A stretch of DNA of 64,000 nucleotides from Candidatus Moraniibacteriota bacterium (lineage in GTDB: Bacteria; Patescibacteriota; Minisyncoccia; Moranbacterales; UBA1568), in assembly GCA_013334245.1 (NCBI GenBank), contig JAAXXZ010000004.1, positions 127 to 64,126 of the forward strand, given 5' to 3'. The position numbers were made by a program, and so were the translations under genes. Positions within the stretch are counted from its first letter, which is position 1. Each line of letters opens with the position of its first letter. The notes beneath the pieces are model-generated. The model was not told where the DNA came from. It did not search any database and saw nothing but the letters and a program-made list of their open reading frames with translations. This document shows, in pieces, positions 3,962-61,773 of the stretch.

Positions 3962-4063
3962 CGCACGGTTTCCGGCTCTCCGGACGGGATTGACGGCCTG
4001 ACGGAGCCGTGTTATCATCGTGGAACGTTTCCCGGGTTCTTTTTTCGAAGCTTTCCGAAGGCT

Positions 4064-17997: not shown

Positions 17998-18026
17998 TTG
18001 ACAGATACAGTTTCTCATGCTATAAT
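17998..18026 (+). promoter_or_regulatory. Consensus sigma70-type promoter (TTGACA-17-TATAAT)
   Basis: Perfect hexamers with a 17-nt spacer in an AT-rich intergenic region, about 50 nt upstream of small ORF 18077. Confidence 0.45.
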
Positions 18027-20520: not shown

Positions 20521-20640
20521 TCACGAACTTATAACTTACAACTGACAACTTACAACAATCCCATCCCCATGACAAATCATGATCAGAATCCGGTGTGAGT
20601 TGTGAGTTATTAGTTGATGGTTGTTAGTTAGCTTCGGATG
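20521..20640. repeat. AT-rich imperfect palindromic repeat element built from GTTGT(A/G)AGTT / AACTTACAAC units
   Basis: AACTTACAACTGACAACTTACAAC is followed by its approximate reverse complement GTGAGTTGTGAGTT...; it is one of three similar loci. Confidence 0.5.
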
Positions 20641-21740: not shown

Positions 21741-21840
21741 TAACTTACAACTTACCACTGATAACTTACAACAGGAGTCAGAAAAAGTTCCCCTTTTCTC
21801 GTTGTTGGTTGTGAGTCGTCAGTTGTCAGTTCTAATAATA
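21741..21840. repeat. Second copy of the GTTGTAAGTT-unit palindromic element
   Basis: AACTTACAACTTACCACTGATAACTTACAAC ... GGTTGTGAGTCGTCAGTTGTCAGTT. Confidence 0.5.
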
Positions 21841-26277: not shown

Positions 26278-26376
26278 TGCCGCCGACAGGCGGTAAGCAC
26301 CAAGCACCAAATAACAAGGACCAAAAGATCAGTCTATGTTTGGTATTTGGAGTTTGGAACGCGAAAGCGTTAGATA

Positions 26377-26448
26377 GCGGGGTAGAGCAGTCTGGCAGCT
26401 CGTCTGGCTCATAACCAGGAGGTCGTGGGTTCGAATCCCACCCCCGCA
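26377..26448 (+). tRNA. tRNA with CAT anticodon (elongator Met or Ile2)
   Basis: GCGGGGT acceptor, anticodon loop CTCATAA, G1-C72 pair so not an initiator. Confidence 0.8.
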
Positions 26449-26692
26449 ACAAGGAATGAAATGACGCAGTGAAGGGGAGCGAGTGAACTGCTTCACTCGC
26501 GAGTGGGATGAGAACGGATTTCCCCTGAAAGGGAAATCAGTGGCTCGAAGAGGAATCCCACCCCCGCAACAAGGAATGAAATGACGCAGTGAAGGGGAGC
26601 GAGTGAACTGCTTCACTCGCGAGTGGGATGAGAACGGATTTCCCCTGAAAGGGAAATCAGTGGCTCGAAGAGGAATCCTACCCCCGCAACCA
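26449..26692. repeat. Two perfect 122-bp tandem units, each ending in a copy of the tRNA-CAT 3' end, plus a third degenerate 3'-end copy
   Basis: 26461-26520 is identical to 26581-26640; each unit has two 8-bp hairpins (CGAGTGAA/TTCACTCG and GATTTCCC/GGGAAATC) and ends GAATCCCACCCCCGCAAC. Confidence 0.75.
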
Positions 26693-28967: not shown

Positions 28968-29139
28968 AGATGACGTTTTTCCTCGTATCGTTCCATTATT
29001 GAGGGCCGCCCGGATGGGCGGCCTTCGTTTTTACCCCTTGACATTTTCAGAAAAAGGACTATAATATGCGGTTTTATCGAACAGGGGCGTTTATGTGCGC
29101 CCGTGTCCGAAAAACGCCTAATCAGTGATACGAAGCAGT

Positions 29140-30830: not shown

Positions 30831-30931
30831 TGGCCGGGCACCATCCGATGTTTGACGGGGCGTGGAAAATCGGGTATCGTTCAGAGGAATCCGGTTTCGA
30901 GTGAATCGGAGCGGTTCCCTGTCCCACGTAT

Positions 30932-37984: not shown

Positions 37985-38040
37985 CGAATAGTTGTTCGTC
38001 GTTCGTCGTTCGTGGTAAGTTGTCAGTTATTAGTTAAATA
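37985..38040. repeat. Third GTTGTxAGTT-unit repeat block
   Basis: AGTTGTTCGTCGTTCGTCGTTCGTGGTAAGTTGTCAGTTATTAGTTAA. Confidence 0.45.
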
Positions 38041-39676: not shown

Positions 39677-42445
39677 ATGGTGGAGGTGTTAGTATCAGTA
39701 AAAAGGTACCTGATCCCTTTTCTGCTAAGCAATATGGCCACTGTATTGGACAAAATTGAAGTAATAAACGAAAAGATCAATAAGAATATTAGCATTCTTG
39801 GAAGTAGTCAGAGAGGTCTTGCATCTCAGGATATTCTTAAAAGCCTGCGTGATTTAATCGAGCATACTGCTGTTTTGATTCATGTGGGAAGTGAAGCAGA
39901 ATTCAACCGTGTTACAAAAGATGCGGGTATGTCCCACATCAAACAAGATCCAGGTAGGTATAGTTTTTTGTACAGATTTCACGACAGAATACAGCTAGCC
40001 TTGTCTCACTATGAGCCAAATGAGAGTGACGCGGAAATGCTTATGCTGGGCTACATGCACGACTTGTTTCTAGTAAAAAAATTTTACATTGAAAACTACA
40101 AACATAGCCTATTGCAGGAGTTGCGGAATTATCCGCTAAACCTTGATCCTGGTTTGTCGGAATACTACAAGGCGGTAATTGAAAAACTAAATAATGGTGA
40201 ATATGAAAAAGAGGCAGATAGAGCTGATTTTTACATTGATAGAGTAAAGCCTTTAATTATTGATGACGAACTGTATTACGAAGTAACCTTTCGTCCTGCG
40301 ACAAACAATTTTGCAAAGTTCAATAAAACAGTTGCCTTTACAAGGCAGAGAATTACAACAAATTACGCCCTCCGACTTAGATTGGCACGTACCCAAATAA
40401 ATGTATTTGACACTAAATCGCGCGCTTTGATTATTTTGGATTACGAAATATCGATACGACCTTGTGAGATACAACACCTTGGGATGATATTTGATCGAGG
40501 CTTTACATTCAATAGCAGAGACAAAGAGTACCAGAATTTAATGAGCGCTCTTAAGGTGAGTCAACTTACACTTTTGGAAATAGCCATTTTGTCCGAGGAG
40601 AGGTATGAAAAGTTTAAGCAGTATATAAGTGCTGGTACGAGTTCTGTAAACATCAAAAATGTCATTGAAAAATGTCGACAGGTAATTTTGAATAACAACG
40701 ACGGTGCAAATATACTCAGGTATCTCCTTACCAACCTAAACAATGTTGTATTAAAGAAACAACTCTTTCAAGAACCATGCGGTATTCTTTCCAATCTATA
40801 CTTGAAAAATAGTTGCAAAGTATTCGATACCATGCCTTTTTGCTCATCGTTGAAGGAACACAATCCAACGAAACTTTCATTAATCAATTGCATATCTCCA
40901 GAGGGCAGGCATCATGAATTTTTGGCAAGGCGCGTGAATCAAAACACAAGAACTCGGAAAATTCTCTATACTCCGTTAGATGAAGTTGAAAAAGTTTATG
41001 CTGTAGACAAGGAGATTGAGACCTTCAATTCAAAAGTGTGGTGGGGACATAAACCTAAGCGATTACTAAGAAAATACTCTAAATATATATACGAGCATGG
41101 TGCAGAGAGTGATTGTTACGAAATATATACCAAATTATTAAGTTTTACCGATTCTTGTATTAAAGACTATCAAACACTTATTGATTTGTGGCTTGATCAG
41201 CAAGTTGAAAATGTAATTGATTCAGAGCAGAAGAAACAGGCGCTACGGCAGCTCTTTGCTAAATCTAGCGTAGCTCTGATTTATGGATCAGCAGGTACAG
41301 GTAAAACAAAGATGATCGAATATATCGACAGTGTTTTTCTTGGCGAAAAGAAAGTTTTTTTATCCAACACATGGGCATCAGTGAATAACCTTAGACATAG
41401 AATTGGTGAAAGCGACAGACGTTTTTTTTCGACAGTTTCTTCCTACTTATGCCACATAGATCATTACGATGAGGCGGAAATACTTTTTATAGATGAGTGT
41501 AGTACGGTGTGTAATGACGATCTGCTGAAAGTATTAAAACATAAGAAGTTTAAGAAAATTGTGCTAGTTGGTGATGTGTACCAAATTGAAGCAATAGATT
41601 TTGGAAATTGGTTTTATCTCTGTAAGAATTTATTGCCCGAGCATTGTATTTTTGAACTAGATGACACACATCGAACTAAGAAAGAAGATCTGAAATTATA
41701 CTGGTCAGCTGTTCGGAATGCTGTTTATGAGGTTCGTGAAATTGCATCCAGAGGACAATTCTCTCAGCCAATCGACCAATTTATAAAAAGTTACAAAGAT
41801 AGCGAAGATCAAATTGTACTGTGTTTAAATTATGATGGATTGTACGGAATTAACAATTTAAACAAATTACTACAAGAAAAAAACCCAAATGAGGGAATAG
41901 ATTGGGGAAGTGTTCATACATATAAAGCTGGAGATCCGATTATTTTCACTGAGACATCGAAATATGCTCCTGTTTTGTACAACAATCTAAAAGGACGTAT
42001 AACAAAAATTACTGCTAGTAGTGACGAAATACAATTTGAAATAATAATTGATTATTCGCCCAACCCGTTTGATGCGCAGAGTCGCGGTATTAAATTTTTA
42101 GAAAATCTTCCAGAGGGAAAGTCCAAGATAGGTTTATCCGTCAGCAAACTAGAGAATGTCGATGAAGATTTAGATGATTCTGACAGATTAGTTCCATTCC
42201 AAGTATCCTATGCCACGTCTATTCATAAGGCTCAGGGTTTAGAGTATAAAACTGTAAAGCTTGTTTTTGTTGATGAAGTTCAAGATATGGTTACTCATAG
42301 CATCTTTTACACAGCTATAACCAGAGCAAAGGAAAGGTTAGAGATATATTGGTCGCCTGAAACTGCAAGCAAGGTATATGAGCGCATTAAATCAAATTTA
42401 AACAAAAAAGATGCGTGCATTTTTAAAAGCAAATTTAAGCTATAG
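39677..42445 (+). CDS. 922-aa protein: about 500-aa N-terminal domain of unknown function fused to a C-terminal RecD/Dda-like SF1 helicase core
   Basis: Walker A GSAGTGKT, Walker B ILFIDECS, motif III VLVGDVYQ, motif V/VI SYATSIHKAQGLEYKTV; about 35% GC versus a 60% backbone; alternative start ATG 39743. Confidence 0.7.
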   Translation: MVEVLVSVKRYLIPFLLSNMATVLDKIEVINEKINKNISILGSSQRGLASQDILKSLRDLIEHTAVLIHVGSEAEFNRVTKDAGMSHIKQDPGRYSFLYRFHDRIQLALSHYEPNESDAEMLMLGYMHDLFLVKKFYIENYKHSLLQELRNYPLNLDPGLSEYYKAVIEKLNNGEYEKEADRADFYIDRVKPLIIDDELYYEVTFRPATNNFAKFNKTVAFTRQRITTNYALRLRLARTQINVFDTKSRALIILDYEISIRPCEIQHLGMIFDRGFTFNSRDKEYQNLMSALKVSQLTLLEIAILSEERYEKFKQYISAGTSSVNIKNVIEKCRQVILNNNDGANILRYLLTNLNNVVLKKQLFQEPCGILSNLYLKNSCKVFDTMPFCSSLKEHNPTKLSLINCISPEGRHHEFLARRVNQNTRTRKILYTPLDEVEKVYAVDKEIETFNSKVWWGHKPKRLLRKYSKYIYEHGAESDCYEIYTKLLSFTDSCIKDYQTLIDLWLDQQVENVIDSEQKKQALRQLFAKSSVALIYGSAGTGKTKMIEYIDSVFLGEKKVFLSNTWASVNNLRHRIGESDRRFFSTVSSYLCHIDHYDEAEILFIDECSTVCNDDLLKVLKHKKFKKIVLVGDVYQIEAIDFGNWFYLCKNLLPEHCIFELDDTHRTKKEDLKLYWSAVRNAVYEVREIASRGQFSQPIDQFIKSYKDSEDQIVLCLNYDGLYGINNLNKLLQEKNPNEGIDWGSVHTYKAGDPIIFTETSKYAPVLYNNLKGRITKITASSDEIQFEIIIDYSPNPFDAQSRGIKFLENLPEGKSKIGLSVSKLENVDEDLDDSDRLVPFQVSYATSIHKAQGLEYKTVKLVFVDEVQDMVTHSIFYTAITRAKERLEIYWSPETASKVYERIKSNLNKKDACIFKSKFKL

Positions 42446-53398: not shown

Positions 53399-53413
53399 CC
53401 CGCTTTACAATAG
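53399..53413 (+). promoter_or_regulatory. CCGCTTTACAATAG motif copy 1 (upstream of rubrerythrin)
   Basis: One of four copies in 5 kb; contains TTTACA / TACAAT promoter-like hexamers. Confidence 0.4.
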
Positions 53414-53466
53414 GCGGTTCTTGCGGGAAAATTGTCGATGGGCGAAGTAATTTTGTTGAAAAGCAT

Positions 53467-53967
53467 ATGGCATCTCATGAAGACCTGATGGCGGCGTTCG
53501 CGGGCGAAAGCCAGGCGAACCGTAAGTACCTCGCGTTCGCGAAGAAGGCGGAAGCCGAAGGCTATCCGGCCGTGGCGAAGCTTTTCCGTGCGGCGGCCGA
53601 GGCCGAGACGGTACACGCGCACGCGCATCTTGCCGCGGCCGGCGGCGTGCAGGATACCGCCGCGAATCTCGAGGCGGCGATTGCAGGGGAACAGTACGAG
53701 TTCACGGATATGTATCCGGGGTTCATCGCGACTGCCGAGGCGGAGGGGAACGTGGCGGCACTCAAGTCTTTCAGGAACGCCGATGCGGTCGAGCACGAGC
53801 ACTACGAGCTCTATCGACAGGCACTCGAGGCAATCAAGGCCGGGCACGATATCGAGGACCTTGCGATCTACGTCTGTCCTGTCTGCGGGCATACCGAGGT
53901 CGGCGTCCGGTCGGAGAAGTGTCCGATTTGCGGCGTCCCGGGAAGCACGTTCATCGAGGTGAAGTAA
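53467..53967 (+). CDS. Rubrerythrin
   Basis: Di-iron four-helix E..H motifs and a C-terminal rubredoxin-like CPVCG...CPICG domain. Confidence 0.85.
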   Translation: MASHEDLMAAFAGESQANRKYLAFAKKAEAEGYPAVAKLFRAAAEAETVHAHAHLAAAGGVQDTAANLEAAIAGEQYEFTDMYPGFIATAEAEGNVAALKSFRNADAVEHEHYELYRQALEAIKAGHDIEDLAIYVCPVCGHTEVGVRSEKCPICGVPGSTFIEVK

Positions 53968-53995
53968 TCTCGCAGATTTCTTTGGAAAAGCGAAA

Positions 53996-54026
53996 AGCCA
54001 TGAAGGTGCGCCTTCATGGCTTTCGT
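53996..54026 (+). terminator. Rho-independent terminator after rubrerythrin
   Basis: AGCCATGAAGG-tgcg-CCTTCATGGCT followed by TTTCG. Confidence 0.6.
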
Positions 54027-54340
54027 GATTGCTGGGATAGTTTTGGGTCACTTGTTTCCGGGAAGTCGCACGCTTTTGTACTGCACGTTTCGCACATACT
54101 TCGATCCGGAACAGAGGATATGGTGGAGAAGGACTATGAGTCCTACTCCGAACAGGGTCCATTTTTTCATGATCAGAGATGGTTGCGTTAAAGAAAAGAG
54201 GGACAATCAGGCGAAAGAGAGGATATCACGCTCTGCAGATGTGTCAAAGATTTCGACGTATGAGGTAAGGAGATGATCGGCTCATATATGCGTGCGCTTC
54301 TTTTTCGGCCGGAACGGACATCCCGCTCGGGATACCGCTG

Positions 54341-54354
54341 TTCGCTTTACAATA
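54341..54354 (+). promoter_or_regulatory. CGCTTTACAATAG motif copy 2
   Basis: Directly upstream of a GGGGAGAGG RBS and the small ORF at 54373. Confidence 0.4.
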
Positions 54355-54372
54355 GTGTCCGGGGAGAGGAAA

Positions 54373-54480
54373 ATGAAGCAGGAAATCATGGCGGAAATTC
54401 ATGGCTATACGCCCGCTACATGTTGCCGATGCCATCACAGGAGTGACGCGAGCGGACGGCCGTCCATTCGCGTCACCTGA
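54373..54480 (+). CDS. Possible 35-aa Cys/His-rich peptide (MKQEIMAEIHGYTPATCCRCHHRSDASGRPSIRVT)
   Basis: Strong SD 5 nt upstream and motif copy 2 upstream; the 3' end is encoded inside the 34-bp palindrome, so it may be a non-coding leader instead. Confidence 0.25.
   Translation: MKQEIMAEIHGYTPATCCRCHHRSDASGRPSIRVT
54443..54476. promoter_or_regulatory. 34-bp nested palindrome GTGACGCGAGCGGACGGCCGTCCATTCGCGTCAC, candidate operator, copy 1
   Basis: 9-bp outer arms GTGACGCGA/TCGCGTCAC and inner GGACGG/CCGTCC arms; 25 bp upstream of the PaaX-like gene start. Confidence 0.45.
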
Positions 54481-54502
54481 TTGAATGATAATGGAGGGAA
54501 AT

Positions 54503-55081
54503 ATGAAACGACTGGGACCGGTGCAGGAAAAGACGCTTCTCATCCTTCTTGGTGTCATCGCGCTTGGGGGTTCGCGCACGATCGTGCGGCAGGCCAGGCT
54601 GGTTTCGGAGCTCCGAAAGGAATGGAAAAAGATCGACCGGAGGAGCGTCGCGCGTTCGCTGAGGCGCCTTTCCGAGGAGAAGCTCATTTCCGAGAAGGTC
54701 TTGCCGGATGAGACCGTCCATTTCGCGCTCACCTCGGAAGGGCGTCGGAAAGCGAGTTTTCTGAACCTGTTCGGTTCGGCCATCACATTCAGGAAGCCGA
54801 AAAAATGGGATGGAAAATGGCGGGTTGTCGCGTTCGATATTCCCGAGAAGAGCCGGTCATTCCGCCGCATCTTGCGCGAGCATCTTCATGAAGCGGAATT
54901 CTATCAGTTGCAGCAAAGCGTGTTCGTATCGCCATATCCTTTCGAGGAGCCGTTTGCGAAGCTCGTGCGGCTGTATGATGCCGAGCCGTACGTCAGGATC
55001 ATGACGGTTTCCTGGATGGATGACGAACTGAAATTGAGGCGCATATTTTTCGGACGTCGCAGGAATCCTTCGAAAGGGTGA
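54503..55081 (+). CDS. PaaX-like winged-helix transcriptional regulator
   Basis: C-terminal block KWDGKWRVVAFDIPEKSRSFRRILREHL...QQSVFVSPYP matches the PaaX C-domain pattern; SD GGAGGG upstream. Confidence 0.55.
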   Translation: MKRLGPVQEKTLLILLGVIALGGSRTIVRQARLVSELRKEWKKIDRRSVARSLRRLSEEKLISEKVLPDETVHFALTSEGRRKASFLNLFGSAITFRKPKKWDGKWRVVAFDIPEKSRSFRRILREHLHEAEFYQLQQSVFVSPYPFEEPFAKLVRLYDAEPYVRIMTVSWMDDELKLRRIFFGRRRNPSKG

Positions 55082-55111
55082 CGTGAGCGGACGGTCGTCA
55101 TTTCGCGCCAC
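55078..55111. promoter_or_regulatory. 34-bp palindrome copy 2 (GTGACGTGAGCGGACGGTCGTCATTTCGCGCCAC), overlapping the regulator stop codon
   Basis: 28 of 34 positions identical to copy 1. Confidence 0.4.
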
Positions 55112-55147
55112 ACTTTTGAGAAGAGTGTGATTTTTCGAATACGGATA

Positions 55148-55162
55148 CCCGCTTTACAATAG
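55148..55162 (+). promoter_or_regulatory. CCCGCTTTACAATAG motif copy 3 with G-rich leader GGGGAGTAGAAAGGGGGTGAAAGGGG
   Basis: Shares the motif and an extended leader with copy 4. Confidence 0.4.
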
Positions 55163-55200
55163 GGTAATTGGGGAGTAGAAAGGGGGTGAAAGGGGTGGGG

Positions 55201-55390
55201 ATGAAGGCATCCGATCTCGTTTTGGGTTAGGGCTGCTCATCGAGGTCGAGCGATTGTCGGACGCAGAAAACGACGAAGCGGTCCAGGAAGACCTGAAAGC
55301 CTTTCTCCTGTCACTCGGCATCGGCAAAATGGACATCGTCACCAAGGGCTACGATACGCTTTTGTATGAGGCGGGAAAATTCGCTTGTTA
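55201..55390 (+). pseudogene. Internally deleted duplicate of the CYTH gene: promoter, leader and first codons fused to the last about 160 bp
   Basis: 55233-55390 is about 90% identical at nucleotide level to 58969-59124; the reading frame is closed after 9 codons (MKASDLVLG*). Confidence 0.6.
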
Positions 55391-55451
55391 AAGGAGTTGG
55401 AGGGGAGGAAAACAGGGGTGTAGGTCTATCGTGATGCTTTCTTCATTGACT

Positions 55452-57839
55452 ATGAAATACGTCAGCTCCCTTTGGAATATCGAGAAAGAAGATAGCGCTA
55501 TCGCTGGAGGAAAAGGCGCTTCGCTTGGTGAGATGATTCGGGCGGGCTTCCCTGTCCCGCCAGGATTTGTCGTTCTTTCAAGTGCTTTTGACGTTTTCTT
55601 GAAGGGGACGGGCTTGAATGCCAAGGTGGAATTGATACTGGAGTCAGTTATTCCCGAAGACACAGGGACAATCGAAAAAGCTTCTGAAAACATCCGATCG
55701 ATTATCCTTGCGGCGGCGATGCCAAGGGAAATTGAAGAGGAAATCAGGAAATCATTCAATGAACTCGGTTCGGAATATGTCGCTGTCAGGTCTTCGGCTA
55801 CCGCCGAGGATTCTGCTGTAGCGGCATGGGCAGGACAGCTCGAAAGCTTTCTTAATACCAATTCGGAAGACTTGCCGAAAAACGTGAAGAGTTGTTGGGC
55901 TTCGCTCTTTACGCCGCGCGCCATAACATATCGGCTCGAAAAAGGATTGGGTTCGCAAAGCATATCAGTCGCTGTCGTCGTTCAGGAAATGGTGGAGAGT
56001 GATACGTCAGGTATTGCCTTTTCCGTCCATCCCGTAACACATGACGTCGACCGTATGTTTATCGAAGCGGGGTACGGGCTTGGTGAAGCGATCGTGTCGG
56101 GGCAGGTTACCCCGGACAGTTATGAGGTGAGAAAAGATCCGATGGAAATAGTGGATAAGAATATTCAATCACCAGCGCGTGGATTATATCGGTCTGATCG
56201 CGGAGGAAACGAATGGCACGATGTGCCTGCGGAGCGGAAGGGGAAGGCGGTTTTGTCGGACGCTGAAATCATAAAGCTGTCGGATATTGTTGTCGGCATA
56301 GAGGGACACTATGGGTTCCCATGCGATATCGAGTGGGCAATCGCAGACGGGCGGCTGTATGTTGTCCAAAGTCGACCGATAACGACACTTGCTGAAAAGC
56401 TCGTGACCGTAGAAAAATTGTTGCTCATGTACAAGGAAGTCAATGTCTGTGGATTGACGATGTCCGTGAACGTCTCGGGTTGGATAGACGAATGGCTGAG
56501 TCGGACCTGCCGCGTAGGCAGTTTCGGGTCGATGGCTTGCCGGTTCCGCGGATATGAGATGGATTTCTATGTGGATAAGGGTCAGTACGAAAAAGCGCAT
56601 TTCGAAATAGTGCGACAGATCGAGGCTGGCACGTATCCCATCGAGTTTTCGACCGAGCGCTCGATGGCGTTGGGTGATCGGATCCTATCGATTGTCCGTT
56701 CGGGTCGTTCGGTATGGGAGGCTATGGACCCTGGGAAAGTCTGCGAAATATTCTCTGAAGTATTCGATTGTAGTCGGAAGCTTTGTTCTTATGGATACAT
56801 TGCCCCCTTATCCGATTTCCCGTACACCTTCATTTCTTCCCGGATGCAGGAGATACTCGAGGCGCGTCACGCTTCGGATGCGGCTGGTCTGAAAATCTTT
56901 TTGAGTACCCCGGAGGCTAGGCGCCCGATGATGCTTGCAAACGAAGAGATGTTTCGGATTATCGCCGAGCAAGGGGACCTCGGATCGTGGCTACAGCGGT
57001 GGTTTTGGATCGATTTCGGTCACATCGGTGCGGTGCTGACCGACGCGTCGGTTCGTGAGAAGTACAAGTTATTATTTGACGATCCCAAACGCGCGACGAC
57101 AGAGCTGCAAAATATCTCTGCAGAATACGGTTCTTTGGAGGAGAAACAGGAAAAAAATATTGGAGAGCTCGGGTTTTCAGATGAAGAGAGACGGATTTTT
57201 CGATATGCACGGGAGATCACGTTTCTGAAGGGGTATCGTGCCGATGTGCTTTCGGCGGCAAACGCATTTTTTGACGCGGTTTTCGAAATCTATTCGAAAA
57301 GACTCGGTATCGGGAAAGACGTTTTCAGGTTTGCGACAAAAGAGGAAGTGGTTGCGCTCATATCGGGAAGCGATATCAATGTCGCGGAAATCCTTGAAAG
57401 GAAAGACTATTCCATTTGGCTTTATACGGACAACGCCTCTGGAATCTTGATACATACCGGCGAACAGGCACGACAGTTTGAAGCAGATCATCTGGCGGAA
57501 GAGCATGTCGTTCATGAGGGAAAAGTTATAAAAGGAAATGTCGCGTACCCCGGTATCGTTGAAGGTACTGTTCGGATTGTGAACTCTCTGGAGGACCTTA
57601 AGAAGATGAATCGCGGAGAAATCCTGGTATCGACGCAGACCACACCGGAACTGCTTCCCGCGATGAGCAAGGCGGCCGCCTTTATTGCCGATGTTGGGGG
57701 GATTATTTCCCATGCCGCCATCGTCGCGAGAGAGATGAAGAAGCCTTGTATCATTGGGACCGAAATCGCATCCAAGGTCCTCAGGGATGGCGATCGGGTT
57801 CGTGTCGATGCCAACTCCGGGGTGATAGAGATAATATGA
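55452..57839 (+). CDS. PEP-utilising enzyme with N-terminal PEP-synthase-type ATP-grasp domain and C-terminal phospho-His swivel domain, with no PEP/pyruvate TIM-barrel domain (rifampin-phosphotransferase-like architecture)
   Basis: N-terminal GGKGASLGEM and ATP-grasp motifs; C-terminal GGIISHAAIVAREMKKPCIIGT mobile domain at the very end of the protein. Confidence 0.7.
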   Translation: MKYVSSLWNIEKEDSAIAGGKGASLGEMIRAGFPVPPGFVVLSSAFDVFLKGTGLNAKVELILESVIPEDTGTIEKASENIRSIILAAAMPREIEEEIRKSFNELGSEYVAVRSSATAEDSAVAAWAGQLESFLNTNSEDLPKNVKSCWASLFTPRAITYRLEKGLGSQSISVAVVVQEMVESDTSGIAFSVHPVTHDVDRMFIEAGYGLGEAIVSGQVTPDSYEVRKDPMEIVDKNIQSPARGLYRSDRGGNEWHDVPAERKGKAVLSDAEIIKLSDIVVGIEGHYGFPCDIEWAIADGRLYVVQSRPITTLAEKLVTVEKLLLMYKEVNVCGLTMSVNVSGWIDEWLSRTCRVGSFGSMACRFRGYEMDFYVDKGQYEKAHFEIVRQIEAGTYPIEFSTERSMALGDRILSIVRSGRSVWEAMDPGKVCEIFSEVFDCSRKLCSYGYIAPLSDFPYTFISSRMQEILEARHASDAAGLKIFLSTPEARRPMMLANEEMFRIIAEQGDLGSWLQRWFWIDFGHIGAVLTDASVREKYKLLFDDPKRATTELQNISAEYGSLEEKQEKNIGELGFSDEERRIFRYAREITFLKGYRADVLSAANAFFDAVFEIYSKRLGIGKDVFRFATKEEVVALISGSDINVAEILERKDYSIWLYTDNASGILIHTGEQARQFEADHLAEEHVVHEGKVIKGNVAYPGIVEGTVRIVNSLEDLKKMNRGEILVSTQTTPELLPAMSKAAAFIADVGGIISHAAIVAREMKKPCIIGTEIASKVLRDGDRVRVDANSGVIEII

Positions 57840-58474
57840 CCACGTTCCCTATGAGACTTATACTTGGCTCGGATATGAGCTTTCTTCTGAAATACGGGTA
57901 CGACCTGACCGGAATTTCGAAGGCGGATATGCGGATCGGGTATGTGACGACAGGGATAAAGGGAGTGCGCACGAAGGAATTTTTCGAGAACGTGGAACGA
58001 CAGATCGTGGAGATCGGATACGATTTCGAGAAGTTCGATATTGAAGGAAAAAGCGTGGAAGAAATGAGGTCGTTCTTCGCGGACAAGAACGTGATCCATA
58101 TCGAAGGCGGTAATACGTTCTATCTATTGAAAGCCATCCGGGAAACCGGTTTCGCCCCAGTGCTTGATGAGCTCCTCAAAGAGGGGAAAGTCTATATCGG
58201 TACGAGTGCGGGATCCTATATAATGTGCCCGTCGATCGAAGTGGCGGATTGGGACGAAACCGGAAAAAGCCGGTTCGGAATGACCGACTTCACCGCTCTC
58301 GGGTATGTCCCATTCGTTCTGAAAGTGCATTACAAGGATGAGAAGGAAGAAACCGTGAGGGAAAAGATGAAGACTGTGCACCATCCGCTCCGATTACTTC
58401 GTGACGGGCAAGGCATCCTCGTCGACAACGGCGTCGAAACCTTCGTCGGTGACGGAGAAGAAACGGTGTTATAG
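57835..58474 (+). CDS. Peptidase E (S51 family)
   Basis: GTSAGS nucleophile region and IHIEGGNTFYLL; ATGA overlap with the preceding stop codon. Confidence 0.75.
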
Positions 58475-58484
58475 GTGAATTATA

Positions 58485-58499
58485 TCCGCTTTACAACGG
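58485..58499 (+). promoter_or_regulatory. TCCGCTTTACAACGG motif copy 4 with the same G-rich leader as copy 3
   Basis: Upstream of the CYTH gene at 58549. Confidence 0.4.
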
Positions 58500-58548
58500 C
58501 GTGTTTGGGGAGTAGAAAGGGGGTGAAAGGGATGGATATTCCGTTCCG

Positions 58549-59124
58549 ATGGTGGGGTATGTCATTAGTACCGAAATGAAGGAAATCGAGGTCAAAGCAC
58601 GGATACGCGATATCGACACGCTGACCGGAGTGCTTGCCGCCAAGGGGTTCGTATTCGGCGAACCCGCGGTCCAAAACGACGTGATATTCCTGCCGGCCGG
58701 GATCGAGTTCCCGGAAATCACCAAAGGGGTGCCGGTCGTGCGTGTGCGGAACGCGGACGGCGTTTTTACCCTGACACTCAAGATGCGCGTCATCGCCGGG
58801 AAGGAACTCATAAAGCTGGAGAAGGAAGTGAATGTGAGCGACGACAAGACGGCCATCGAGATCGTCTCGCTCATGGGATTTCACGAGGTGATACGAGTCG
58901 GCAAGAAACGGATGGAATGCGAACACGACGGCGTGACCGTCTGTATCGACGATGTGACCGGACTCGGGGCGTTCATCGAGGTCGAGCGATTGTCGGACGC
59001 AGAAAACGGCGAAGCGGTCCAGGAAGACCTGAAAGCCTTCCTCCTGTCGCTTGGCATCGGCACAGACGACATCATCACCAAAGGCTACGACACGCTTTTG
59101 TATGAGAAGAAGAAACCGTGTTAA
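58549..59124 (+). CDS. CYTH-domain protein (CyaB-like), paralogue 2
   Basis: MKEIEVKARI E.E.K motif; intact parent of the 55201-55390 fragment; a short 15-codon uORF in another frame starts at 58533. Confidence 0.65.
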   Translation: MVGYVISTEMKEIEVKARIRDIDTLTGVLAAKGFVFGEPAVQNDVIFLPAGIEFPEITKGVPVVRVRNADGVFTLTLKMRVIAGKELIKLEKEVNVSDDKTAIEIVSLMGFHEVIRVGKKRMECEHDGVTVCIDDVTGLGAFIEVERLSDAENGEAVQEDLKAFLLSLGIGTDDIITKGYDTLLYEKKKPC

Positions 59125-59179: not shown

Positions 59180-60946
59180 ATGCGATATATAAAGTTTCTG
59201 ATTCGTAATTATAAAGGAATAAAGTCATTAGAGTTGGATTTAGATTTATTCCCCGATCATAAAATCTATACACTAGTTGGTCTAAATGAATCGGGGAAAA
59301 CAACCATACTTGAAGCAATAAATGATTTTGAATTTGATGTCTCAGTTAATAAGCGGCATCTGTTAATACCGAAGAGTTCGGCGGGAGGTTTTACTGGAGA
59401 TATCGCAATAAAAGCAACGCTTCAATTTTCTGAAGATGATAAAGGGAGAATAATTGCCTTCATTCGGTCGAGGATTAAGGTAAGTGAAGTGTTTGTCTCT
59501 GAAACTTTAATCATAGAACGAAAATATAGTTTTAAAAACTCTACGCCGTATGAGTCTAAAAGAACATACGAAAAATATGTAAAAATAAAAAAGACTGCAA
59601 AAGGAAAGCCAGTTGATTTGGATGAAAGTATATCCAAAGAACTGTGGAGTTTTATTAAGGAAACGATGTTTCCTGAGATAATCTTTTATCGTGATTTCCT
59701 TTCTAAATTTCCGGAGAAGATTTACTTAGATGCAGAAGATCCTAAAGATAAGAACTATCTATCAATTATTGAAGATATTCTTACTGCTATAAATCCTGAT
59801 TATAACGTTCAAAATAGTCTCTTAGACAGACTGGACGATTCAACTGATGCTGCAAAAAAACAAGCGCTTGAAGCAGTCGAGAATGACATGGGCGCGAAGA
59901 TTTCTAAAGTAGTGTTTGACGCATGGAACAAGATACTAAACGTAAGTAAGAAAGAAATTGTTGTTAAGGCAGAATATGATGCCGAGAAGGGAAGATATTA
60001 TCTTCGATTGAGCGTAAAAGATGGTCATCAAACTTACGCCGTTGCTGAGCGGAGTCTAGGATTTCGATGGTTTTTCACTTTTCTTTTATACACAGAATTT
60101 CGAAAGGAAAGGATAAAAACTTCAGGAGAAATCTTGTTTATTTTGGATGAGCCAGCATCAAATCTTCATCAGACTGCGCAACAAAGCTTACTTGAAACAT
60201 TTCGTACAATAACAAGCAAATCACGACTAATATATACAACACATAGTCATCATTTGGTGAATCCAGAATGGTTAAGTTCCGCATATATTATTCGAAACAA
60301 AGGTCTTAAGTATAATGAGAGTGATGATTATAATCTAACGAAGACGGAAATTGAAGCATTTAAGTACAAGCAATTTGTTTCAAAATACCCGACCGAAACC
60401 TCGTATTTTCAGCCGATTTTGGATGTGTTGGATTATAAGCCAGGCTTACTTGAGCTGATTCCCAATATCGTAATAACAGAAGGAAAATTCGACTATTTTA
60501 CCTTTAGATATTTTAAAGAGATAGTTTTCTCGGACTTGACTGATGGCTATAGATTTTATCCTGGAATGGGCGCTTCAAGCTTAGACCTACCTATTTCCTT
60601 ATATGAATCATGGGGTAAAGGATATTTGGTTTTACTTGATTCGGATAAGGAGGGCCGTGATCAAAAGGAGCGTTATATTAAAGATATAAGCGATACTCAG
60701 CATATCTATACTCTTGAGGATTGTTTTTCAGATTTAAAAAATTCAACGACTGAAAAAGTATTTACTGAAACGGAAAAAATTGAAATCTCTAAGGAGTTTA
60801 ACAGTGAGCTTACTGAATATAATAAAAACGCTTTTAATACGGGAATTCAGATTCTGTTAATGCAAAAACGTATTCCTGACTATTTAACTGATGAAACAAA
60901 GAAAAAGATGAGGAAGATTATCGAATTTATCAACGGTAAAATATAA
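59180..60946 (+). CDS. OLD-family nuclease (N-terminal ABC-type ATPase plus C-terminal Toprim)
   Basis: Walker A GLNESGKTT, Walker B ILFILDEPASNLH, H-loop TTHSHH; Toprim Glu (ITEGKFD) and DxD (LLDSDKEG); about 33% GC. Confidence 0.7.
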   Translation: MRYIKFLIRNYKGIKSLELDLDLFPDHKIYTLVGLNESGKTTILEAINDFEFDVSVNKRHLLIPKSSAGGFTGDIAIKATLQFSEDDKGRIIAFIRSRIKVSEVFVSETLIIERKYSFKNSTPYESKRTYEKYVKIKKTAKGKPVDLDESISKELWSFIKETMFPEIIFYRDFLSKFPEKIYLDAEDPKDKNYLSIIEDILTAINPDYNVQNSLLDRLDDSTDAAKKQALEAVENDMGAKISKVVFDAWNKILNVSKKEIVVKAEYDAEKGRYYLRLSVKDGHQTYAVAERSLGFRWFFTFLLYTEFRKERIKTSGEILFILDEPASNLHQTAQQSLLETFRTITSKSRLIYTTHSHHLVNPEWLSSAYIIRNKGLKYNESDDYNLTKTEIEAFKYKQFVSKYPTETSYFQPILDVLDYKPGLLELIPNIVITEGKFDYFTFRYFKEIVFSDLTDGYRFYPGMGASSLDLPISLYESWGKGYLVLLDSDKEGRDQKERYIKDISDTQHIYTLEDCFSDLKNSTTEKVFTETEKIEISKEFNSELTEYNKNAFNTGIQILLMQKRIPDYLTDETKKKMRKIIEFINGKI

Positions 60947-61140: not shown

Positions 61141-61773
61141 ATGTCATATTGCTCGATGTGTGGAACCAAGGCAAATGATGGCGCAATCTTTTGTTCTAAG
61201 TGTGGATCGAATTTGCAAAAGGGCCAACCCTCTGATCTTGAGGTAAAAGAAATTCGGTCAGAAAGTAATATCAGTTTTTTTTCCATATCAAACAAGCGTC
61301 TTGCTCTGTTTTCTGTTATCACGTTCGGCCTATACGAGATATTTTGGTTTTATAAAAATTGGAGTGCAGTAAAAATGGCCGAAGGCAAGAAGATCGCACC
61401 ATTCTGGAGAGCTATATTTGCTGTATTTTTCTGTCACTCACTTTTTAAGAAAGTTCTTGAATCAGCTAAAAGTCATTCATATACCAAATCGTATTCTCCT
61501 GGTTGGCTAGCTGCAGGGTATATTATTATTCTTTTTATTAATAATGCTTTGAGTAAAGCAGAATCTACTGATATAAGTACTCTTTTGTTGTTACTGTTTT
61601 CTTTGATTTCATTTTTGCCTTTGTTGCCAGTCCAAAATGCGATTAACTATAATAATGAACAATTAAAGGGTGCGATGCCGTTGAAACATGGTTTCTCTGG
61701 TGGGGAAGTTACAATTATAGTAGTGGGTATCATTTGGTTTTTTCTGGTACTCGTTGGTACGTTCTCGGCGTGA
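61141..61773 (+). CDS. Zinc-ribbon-anchored membrane protein (DUF4234-like)
   Basis: N-terminal CSMCG...CSKCG ribbon, GLYEIFWFYKNW motif, 4 TM; AT-rich like the OLD gene. Confidence 0.5.
   Translation: MSYCSMCGTKANDGAIFCSKCGSNLQKGQPSDLEVKEIRSESNISFFSISNKRLALFSVITFGLYEIFWFYKNWSAVKMAEGKKIAPFWRAIFAVFFCHSLFKKVLESAKSHSYTKSYSPGWLAAGYIIILFINNALSKAESTDISTLLLLLFSLISFLPLLPVQNAINYNNEQLKGAMPLKHGFSGGEVTIIVVGIIWFFLVLVGTFSA

Follow-up and report, generated by a model that had tools for sequence, protein, structure and literature searches.

Why does one short promoter-like sequence recur four times within 5 kb of a reduced genome, and what is its role there? The question is raised by a 64-kb stretch of contig JAAXXZ010000004.1 of a Candidatus Moraniibacteriota bacterium (the window), in which CCGCTTTACAATAG and its variants precede the genes of rubrerythrin, a PaaX-like regulator, a phosphoenolpyruvate (PEP)-utilising enzyme with an S51 peptidase, and a CYTH protein. 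The initial annotation considered the sequence a dedicated promoter, or a regulator binding site embedded in one, which contains TTTACA and TACAAT hexamers and co-ordinates an oxidative-stress/metabolic mini-regulon. The comparison presented here argues for a lineage-specific promoter of the sigma-70 family that is reused for accessory genes and has been both inherited and duplicated; this reading is regarded as probable rather than secure.

With 0-2 mismatches, CCGCTTTACAATAG gave four matches, all on the plus strand and within a span of 5.1 kb, and the window was otherwise empty. The matches started at 53400 (no mismatches), 54342 (one), 55149 (none) and 58486 (two). As 0.18 matches were expected by chance and none of 100 shuffled sequences contained four, the described use of the motif four times in 5 kb was borne out. 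The relaxed pattern TTTACA-N17-KANAAH matched exactly the same four sites (0.11 expected). A scan of the window with a position weight matrix (PWM) resulted in the four copies and a degenerate fifth one, the other 59 kb being without a match. The similarity outside the hexamers sorted the copies into two classes, A and B. The copies, with their positions in nucleotides (nt), are the following.

53399-53432, plus strand: copy 1, class A, bare promoter-like; CCCGCTTTACA, -35-like TTTACA 53404-53409, 17-nt spacer, GAAAAT 53427-53432; 5 nt past the stop codon of a GT4 glycosyltransferase gene and 34 nt ahead of the rubrerythrin ATG (53467).
54341-54374, plus strand: copy 2, class A; TTCGCTTTACA, TTTACA 54346-54351, 17-nt spacer, GAAAAT 54369-54374; heads a leader of ~120 nt with palindrome 1, followed by the PaaX-like gene.
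55148-55198, plus strand: copy 3, class B module; CCCGCTTTACA, TTTACA 55153-55158, 17-nt spacer, TAGAAA 55176-55181, GGGGGTGAAAGG block; PWM score 60.4 bits; behind it, in this order, a CYTH remnant, the PEP-utilising gene and the S51 gene.
55383-55413, plus strand: copy 5, degenerate; GCTTGTTA, 17-nt spacer, GAAAAC; PWM score 19.9 bits, just short of the 20.2-63.2 bits spanned by the training sequences; ends 17 nt ahead of the GTG (55431) of the PEP-utilising enzyme gene.
58485-58535, plus strand: copy 4, class B module; TCCGCTTTACA, TTTACA 58490-58495, 17-nt spacer, TAGAAA 58513-58518, GGGGGTGAAAGG block; begins 11 nt past the S51 stop codon, with the intact CYTH gene (ATG 58576) behind it.

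The relatives were sampled as neighbourhoods of the PaaX-like gene, loci L001-L005 by exact look-up and L006-L085 as one genome per species. The promoters of ten related Moranbacteria loci were compared, and 33 unique copies were aligned into a position matrix. The core unit consisted of C(GC)TTTACA, exactly 17 nt, and GGAnAAT, the latter being TAGAAA in copies 3 and 4; the core of the first block is CTTTACA, usually within CGCTTTACA. In 238 kb of close-clade DNA the pattern TTTACA-Nx-KANAAH was found 40 times at x = 17, always on the gene strand, and 0-2 times at each of the other spacers between 12 and 22. No spacer peak for this pattern was detected in 1.06 Mb of distant loci. In the matrix, C preceded TTTACA in 32 of the 33 copies, G was present at -13 in 32 and at -12 in 23, and T at -7 in 24. 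A-11 and A-9/-8 were found in 33/33, which is the selection criterion, since the copies had been picked by the A's of the second block. A-11 and T-7 are the key positions of the -10 element of sigma-70 promoters, and both are kept in the GAAAAT of window copies 1 and 2. TTTACA agrees with TTGACA in 5/6 positions. Every copy was found with TTTACA as the seed; its invariance in the upstream regions of six rubrerythrin orthologues is a result independent of the seed. In these six genomes, in which the protein identity went down to 75%, only CTTTACA, GGAnAAT and the ATG region were invariant, the spacer and the leader had diverged, and the second block stood 32-35 nt from the ATG throughout. The footprint was also retained upstream of the PaaX-like orthologues, where copy 2 was kept in L001, L002, L004, L006, L007 and L008. 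The copies were intergenic; each immediately followed a stop codon or terminator and preceded a gene remnant or, by 12-70 nt, a start codon.

Because the unit is bipartite with a fixed spacing and invariant blocks, TTTACA is taken as the predicted -35 element, and the pattern as a whole is the one expected of -35 and -10 elements. The two bases following TTTACA were variable (AA, AC, AT, GC, GT, CG, TT); therefore, TACAAT is considered incidental, and copy 4, which had been assigned it, reads TACAAC. The -10-like element is GGAnAAT, 17 nt past TTTACA. The promoter-like character of the motif was supported with respect to its bipartite form, 17-nt spacer, co-orientation and footprint, but not with respect to the TACAAT hexamer, the regulator site and the coherent theme.

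The sequence GCTTTACA recurred only in the closest relatives, L001-L013 (PaaX-like identity of at least about 60%, GC content 51-58%), always intergenic and on the gene strand. A metagenome-wide scan returned 16 stretches, which were the same lineages, one new relative (L099) and low-scoring chance matches. A phage origin was checked in IMG/VR and rejected, as there were 0 matches.

The class A copies, i.e. the rubrerythrin and PaaX-like promoters, each resembled only their orthologue in other genomes. In contrast, the class B copies had a common module of 45-55 nt, CCGCTTTACAAYRGGGnAATTGGGGAGTAGAAAGGGGGTGAAAG, which preceded unrelated genes or remnants both within and between genomes: CYTH, polyprenyl-synthase-like, 109-residue and 330-residue proteins, 'MYLT..' open reading frames (ORFs), and orphan copies running into a hairpin. 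Outside the hexamers, the class B copies were 76-89% identical across unrelated downstream genes and 76-100% identical in L001, L002, L007 and L008. The G-rich leader ascribed to copies 3 and 4 was identified as the exact 27-nt TTGGGGAGTAGAAAGGGGGTGAAAGGG at 55168-55194 and 58505-58531. The similarity of these two copies extends over the 54-nt repeat D2 with 87% identity, and behind copy 3 the following feature is located.

55199-55391, plus strand: CYTH remnant, in which a 5' fragment is fused to the final ~48 codons; repeat D1.

The stretch 55230-55370 of the remnant (D1, 141 nt) was 90% identical to 58966-59106 in the intact CYTH gene, in agreement with its initial assignment. The pair of remnant and intact gene places copies 3 and 4 in one duplication; all four copies exist, but these two are not independent. 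They arose by segmental duplication followed by an internal deletion, as the remnant shows. The 5' breakpoint of the remnant was identical in the window, L001 and L099, yet the 3' part of the L001 remnant matched the intact CYTH gene of its own genome, which suggests gene conversion inside the cluster; the window remnant matched its intact gene less closely. The likeness of copies 3 and 4 is attributed to duplication and conversion. The region is rich in remnants, with S51 3' ends preceding the motif in L001 and L002 and CYTH 3' ends following it in the window, L001, L002 and L099. The CYTH remnants (window 55199-55391, L001 16620-16830, L099 ~1640-1835) contain an open frame of 45-46 codons from a TTG. 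Orphan class B copies were observed at L001 12746-12840, L007 7579-7650 and L099 322-400. A hairpin follows them after ~15 nt (AGCCGGGCAATAG..., AGCCGGGTATAG..., AGCCAGGTATAG...), whose stem varies between genomes with its complementarity preserved, and which may represent a small RNA or terminate the convergent gene.

The genes downstream of the copies were determined by Pfam, which agreed with the initial identifications and also confirmed the GT4 glycosyltransferase.

53467-53967, plus strand: rubrerythrin gene, unit of copy 1 (Pfam).
54503-55081, plus strand: PaaX-like regulator gene, unit of copy 2 (Pfam: winged helix-turn-helix and Cas2-like PaaX_M).
55431-58474, plus strand: PEP-utilising enzyme and S51 peptidase, unit of copies 3 and 5 (Pfam).
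55431-57839, plus strand: PPDK_N and PEP-utilizers gene, with PPDK_N and the mobile His domain (Pfam).
57836-58474, plus strand: Peptidase_S51 gene (Pfam); its start overlaps the preceding stop in ATGA, 57836-57839.
58576-59124, plus strand: intact CYTH gene, unit of copy 4 (Pfam).

Rubrerythrin, PaaX-like, CYTH and S51 genes were recurrent behind the motif in the relatives (L001, L002, L004, L008), and to this extent the proposed functional grouping was upheld. The PEP-utilising enzyme was found only in the window lineage. However, the promoter was also located ahead of RadC, a HsdM-type type I methylase, a MazE-like antitoxin, polyprenyl-synthase-like and NTP_transf_2 proteins, and proteins or remnants without a family; RadC, HsdM and MazE-like were the cargo of loci L010-L013. 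With such heterogeneous downstream genes the proposal of a coherent oxidative-stress mini-regulon was not supported; the set rather resembles a group of accessory genes for which one type of promoter has been reused. The small Cys/His ORF that had been listed as a further target (54374-54481) is present; in L007 its frame ends at codon 19, and the counterparts in L002 and L008 are unrelated. As it is unconserved as a protein in the relatives, the region is probably a 5' untranslated region and was treated as such.

According to the proposed explanation, the RNA polymerase holoenzyme would bind the CTTTACA and GGAnAAT blocks (TAGAAA in copies 3 and 4), and transcription would start ~6-9 nt past the second block, resulting in leaders of roughly 10-60 nt. 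Copy 1 would drive rubrerythrin, copy 2 the palindrome leader and the PaaX-like gene, copy 3 the CYTH remnant and copy 4 the CYTH gene, with the degenerate copy 5 positioned ahead of the PEP-utilising and S51 genes. The class A copies are inherited vertically, the two blocks alone being conserved; the class B module spreads by segmental duplication and gene conversion in a rearrangement-prone cluster. The shared non-canonical promoter would give the units a common expression behaviour. We infer the transcription start at these sites, the use of a sigma factor and the co-regulation from the observed sequence, geometry, orientation, position, conservation and duplication history of the copies.

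The window also contains canonical promoters (TTGACN-16/17-TAnnnT), which precede genes and tRNAs.

29038-29065: canonical promoter, TTGACA-16-TATAAT.
17998-18026: canonical promoter, TTGACA-17-TATAAT.
30852-30880: canonical promoter ahead of tRNA-Met, TTGACG-17-TATCGT.
3990-4018: canonical promoter, TTGACG-17-TATCAT.
54247-54220, minus strand: canonical promoter, TTGACA-16-TATCCT.

The last of these belongs to a hydrophobic 43-codon ORF on the minus strand (MKKWTLFGVGLIVLL..., 54040-54170) between rubrerythrin and copy 2, which shares a hairpin (53995-54024) with the 3' end of the rubrerythrin gene. Compared with the canonical promoters, the motif has G instead of T at -12 in most copies, G at -13, and CGC 5' of the -35. 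Since canonical promoters occur elsewhere in the window, the motif is classified as a separate, variant promoter class, confined, as judged from the present comparison, to a rearranging gene cluster around the PaaX-like regulator.

Several observations weigh against a plain reused sigma-70 promoter. Copies 3 and 4 (TAGAAA) have A and not T at -7, and the prevailing G-12 and G-13 are atypical for a housekeeping sigma-70 -10 element. All the copies are located within a few kb of the PaaX-like gene, with none in the other 59 kb, and this clustering hints at dedicated control rather than plain reuse; the distribution of the motif in the relatives refers to PaaX-like neighbourhoods only. In addition, the class B block after the hexamer, GGGGGTGA/GGAGGTGA, is a perfect complement of the Shine-Dalgarno (SD) type, and in L002 it lies at SD distance from an ATG. 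If the G-rich block serves as an SD site, the transcription start must be located upstream of it. However, SD cores were not enriched upstream of the 48 predicted starts in the window (11/48 genes versus a background of 18%), so the SD-like block is no argument against a start site inside or after it, and its role as an SD site is weakened. Many starts in the window are preceded instead by an A-rich context, GAAAnnnnATG or AAACGCGTATG.

The PaaX-like protein has 192 amino acids and consists of the winged helix-turn-helix and the Cas2-like PaaX_M domain, without the PaaX C-terminal domain. A Candidatus Moranbacteria metagenome-assembled genome encodes an identical protein (100%), and there are hundreds of homologues in Patescibacteria. 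Two palindromes bracket its gene.

54443-54476: palindrome 1, GTGACGCGAGCGGACGGCCGTCCATTCGCGTCAC, 27 nt ahead of the PaaX-like ATG, in the leader of copy 2.
55078-55111: palindrome 2, overlapping the PaaX-like stop codon, ~40 nt upstream of the -35 of copy 3.

The two palindromes had 78% identity over the 45-nt repeat D3. The RNA fold of palindrome 1 was determined as -26.5 kcal/mol (z = -4.8). The bracket was also found in L001, L004, L006, L007 and L008. The palindrome is an inverted repeat of ~34 bp with a ACGGCCGT core and arms that are variable but complementary. Of 74 Patescibacteria loci, 50 carried it at most 150 nt upstream of the PaaX-like gene, 54 at most 160 nt downstream and 42 on either side; its frequency elsewhere was 0.33 per 10 kb, and in shuffled DNA 0. 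No literature on the ACGGCCGT palindrome was found. Thus distributed, it is the better candidate for the PaaX-like operator or, in the case of palindrome 1, for a leader hairpin, and the PaaX-like protein may modulate two of the four units via the palindromes. The distance between palindrome and motif varied in ~5-nt steps between 58 and 73 nt; as these are roughly half-turn differences, a fixed palindrome-promoter phasing was rejected. In low-GC relatives the 3' arm of the palindrome runs into TGnTACAAT/TATAAT 6-7 nt ahead of the ATG, a promoter of the leaderless type. In the low-GC relative L025 (7531-10594), five successive intergenic gaps each carry this palindrome, GTAACATAATnnnACGGCCGTnnnATTATGTTAC, which ends 29-53 nt before the ATG in four gaps and 13 nt before the PaaX-like gene. 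The genes so separated (240 residues, 74 residues, an operon-like pair of 133 and 82 residues, 184 residues, PaaX-like, 166 residues) are small and unrelated, in a cassette-like layout.

The possibility that the motif acts at the RNA level was also considered. A search of the window in Rfam 15 matched tRNAs only, and between 53300 and 59200 nothing was found at E ≤ 1 besides one chance snoRNA match at E = 1. The leaders behind the motif were not unusually structured (z = -0.6 to -1.0), and a riboswitch or other known RNA was accordingly rejected. A leader peptide was likewise rejected: the 15-codon upstream ORF with ATG 58533 and stop codon TGA 58578-58580, overlapping the CYTH ATG, was unconserved, and the upstream ORFs after other copies had other lengths, frames and sequences. 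The hairpin at TTTACA had a mean of -6.3 kcal/mol compared with -5.2 kcal/mol for shuffles, and z was below -1 in only 6 of 33 copies and between +0.6 and -1.3 in the window copies; the three hairpins with z below -2 were all from L010 and L013. A hairpin or terminator around TTTACA, being no better than shuffles, was rejected for the window clade. Only in L010, L011 and L013 is GCTTTACA looped out by a CCCGC/GCGGG stem with a T-run of 5-6 behind it (z -2.3 to -3.6); in two such hairpins the -10-like hexamer is missing. The window's CGC...GGGG flanks could be what is left of this stem.

The consistent deviation of the -10 region (GG-A-n-AAT) and of the CGC 5' of the -35 from the canonical promoters of the window would also be expected if the same promoter were dedicated, that is, recognized by an alternative sigma factor or controlled by an activator or repressor in a co-regulated stimulon built around rubrerythrin, PaaX-like, CYTH and S51. 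The 4-5 copies in 5 kb with none in the other 59 kb, and the four gene families recurring behind the motif in L001, L002, L004 and L008, are in line with it. We consider this version possible but doubtful: no sigma or anti-sigma gene was detected among the called genes of the neighbourhoods L001-L005, the cargo of L010-L013 does not follow a stress theme, the extra similarity of class B is largely explained by common descent, and to our knowledge the hexamers fit no alternative-sigma consensus (sigma-B, sigma-H, sigma-28, sigma-32, sigma-54, extracytoplasmic function). If the control were exerted by the adjacent PaaX-like regulator, the motif would be its operator, embedded in its promoters. 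In all the close-clade genomes copies of it do stand to either side of the PaaX-like gene, none of them farther away than ~7 kb, and copy 2 drives the regulator itself as autoregulation predicts. However, the motif has no dyad symmetry, its inverted repeat being no better than shuffles in the window clade, and it was absent from 72 distant loci whose proteins of this family have 35-59% identity. A role as the binding site is improbable because the PaaX-like protein has its own, far more widely conserved palindrome, which stands at no fixed phase to the motif. The operator reading is thus scarcely probable, and the initial suggestion of a regulator binding site was not sustained.

TACAAT could alternatively be the -10 element itself, with the G-rich block transcribed and GGAG and GGGGGTGA used as SD sites. 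The block is fully complementary to the usual 3' end of 16S rRNA; in L002 (13357) it precedes the ATG of a 336-residue ORF by 4-7 nt, and in window copy 5 AGGGGTG is located 9 nt ahead of the GTG at 55431. Nevertheless, TACAAT as the -10 was rejected, since its last two positions vary (AT, AC, GC, GT, CG, TT, AG), which would leave fewer than half of the copies with T at -7, and nothing is conserved 17 nt upstream of it. A leader would also leave the exact 17-nt spacing to GAnAAT unexplained; SD motifs are, as determined above, not enriched, and the G-rich block is missing from rubrerythrin and PaaX-like copies, i.e. from class A, except for the PaaX-like copy of L002. This arrangement is regarded as highly unlikely. 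A structural or recombination element (terminator or hairpin of the repetitive extragenic palindromic type, attC-like site, mini mobile element or leader RNA) is brought to mind by the terminator-like stem-loops of L010, L011 and L013, two of them without a -10-like hexamer, and by a region full of remnants and duplications. It is hardly credible: in the window clade the hairpin was no better than shuffles, and neither Rfam nor the fold of the leaders gave any support. The remnant breakpoints are inside genes and not at the motif, there are no terminal inverted repeats, and the gene lists of L001 and L004-L005 show no integrase adjoining the arrays. The large serine recombinase of L002/L003 (Resolvase/Recombinase domains) is ~8 kb upstream of the first copy and not at the array. 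Strict orientation and a bipartite 17-nt geometry are promoter properties, as the sigma-70-family reading expects.

In comparison with known systems, the element is predicted to work like a -35/-10 promoter and would be mechanistically ordinary. TTTACA is the -35 element of the E. coli lac promoter, which is of the sigma-70 type. As in sigma-70 promoters, a TTGACA-like TTTACA and a second hexamer, in copies 1 and 2 with A-11 and T-7, are 17 bp apart, upstream and co-oriented, a geometry shared with the canonical promoters of the window; unlike in sigma-70 promoters, the -10 is GGAnAAT/TAGAAA with G-12 and G-13 in place of TA and TGn, and there is an extra C(GC) 5' of the -35 and a G-rich block 3' of the -10. 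The sigma-B consensus of Firmicutes is GTTTAA-N12-15-GGGWAW. A G-rich -10 region common to stress-type genes such as rubrerythrin resembles the sigma-B regulon, but the hexamers and spacing misfit that consensus, the best alignment needing a 16-nt spacer, no sigma gene was seen nearby and the cargo is heterogeneous. With respect to integron-like arrays, no integrase was detected among the Pfam matches of the cluster either; the units carry their own promoter and the motif is not palindromic. Putative mobile promoters have been described by Nijveen, Matus-Garcia and van Passel (2012) as near-identical upstream sequences before unrelated genes of one genome, at least 80% identical over at least 50 nt (PMC3575422). 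Class B is similar in preceding unrelated genes with no known mobile element attached, and D2 has the required identity and length; however, both members of the window pair are followed by paralogous CYTH sequence and would be removed as a duplication under that definition, and the copies of L001 precede unrelated genes with a shared block of only ~45 nt. The class B block (~45-55 nt) is at the lower limit of the definition, and class A shares the hexamers only. Correia elements, ERIC and REPIN are promoter-bearing intergenic repeats (PMC3575422). The motif resembles them as short repeated intergenic DNA supplying promoter hexamers and differs in having no terminal inverted repeats or significant hairpin, one orientation and, as sampled, one cluster.

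A conserved promoter copy is located directly after the PaaX-like gene and its 3' palindrome, and the slot behind it holds a genome-specific gene or remnant: the CYTH remnant with the PEP-utilising and S51 genes, a 109-residue protein, an S51 remnant, 'MYLT..' remnants, a 330-residue protein or a MazE-like antitoxin. The palindromes and the promoter module might together form a cassette platform anchored on the winged helix-turn-helix and Cas2-like (PaaX-like) gene, which is considered unlikely. If true, it would be an undescribed Patescibacteria system capturing accessory genes under common control, with the PaaX-like protein as gatekeeper or recombination factor.

No literature was found on promoter motifs or start sites in Patescibacteria (the candidate phyla radiation) or on the PaaX-like proteins there, and nothing relevant on Moranbacteria rubrerythrin. 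The understanding of promoter function is unchanged by the present findings. They provide a comparatively supported promoter class with a clear geometry for one Moranbacteria clade, which coexists with standard TTGACA/TATAAT promoters in the same genome. They also document promoter reuse, by duplication and gene conversion and with orphan promoters before remnants, in a reduced genome, for which every regulatory element is expected to be a burden. The promoter was separated from the probable PaaX-like operator; the latter shows phylum-wide conservation and is perhaps the more interesting lead.

Further observations were made in the window. The third-position GC of the genes that immediately follow the cluster, 59180-60946 and 61141-61773, was 0.30 and 0.34, respectively, compared with ~0.6-0.75 elsewhere. 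The gene at 59180-60946 encodes an AAA_15/AAA_21 ATPase with AriA, OLD and GajA as the best PADLOC matches, and is probably a horizontally acquired defence gene. The 922-residue ORF at 39677-42445 had a third-position GC of 0.34 (genome ~0.7) and is probably foreign DNA. At 26433-26690, a 120-nt tandem repeat (2.2 copies, 99% identical) starts in the last 18 nt of tRNA-Met (26376-26450), a pattern reminiscent of an integrative element that used the tRNA as its attachment site. AAGTTGT/CAGTTGT heptad-like repeats were located at 20526-20608, 21742-21831 and 38017-38028, all intergenic; their core AAGTTGTCAGTT gave 10 matches versus 2.8 expected, and two of the regions are just upstream of tRNA-Ala and tRNA-Ser.

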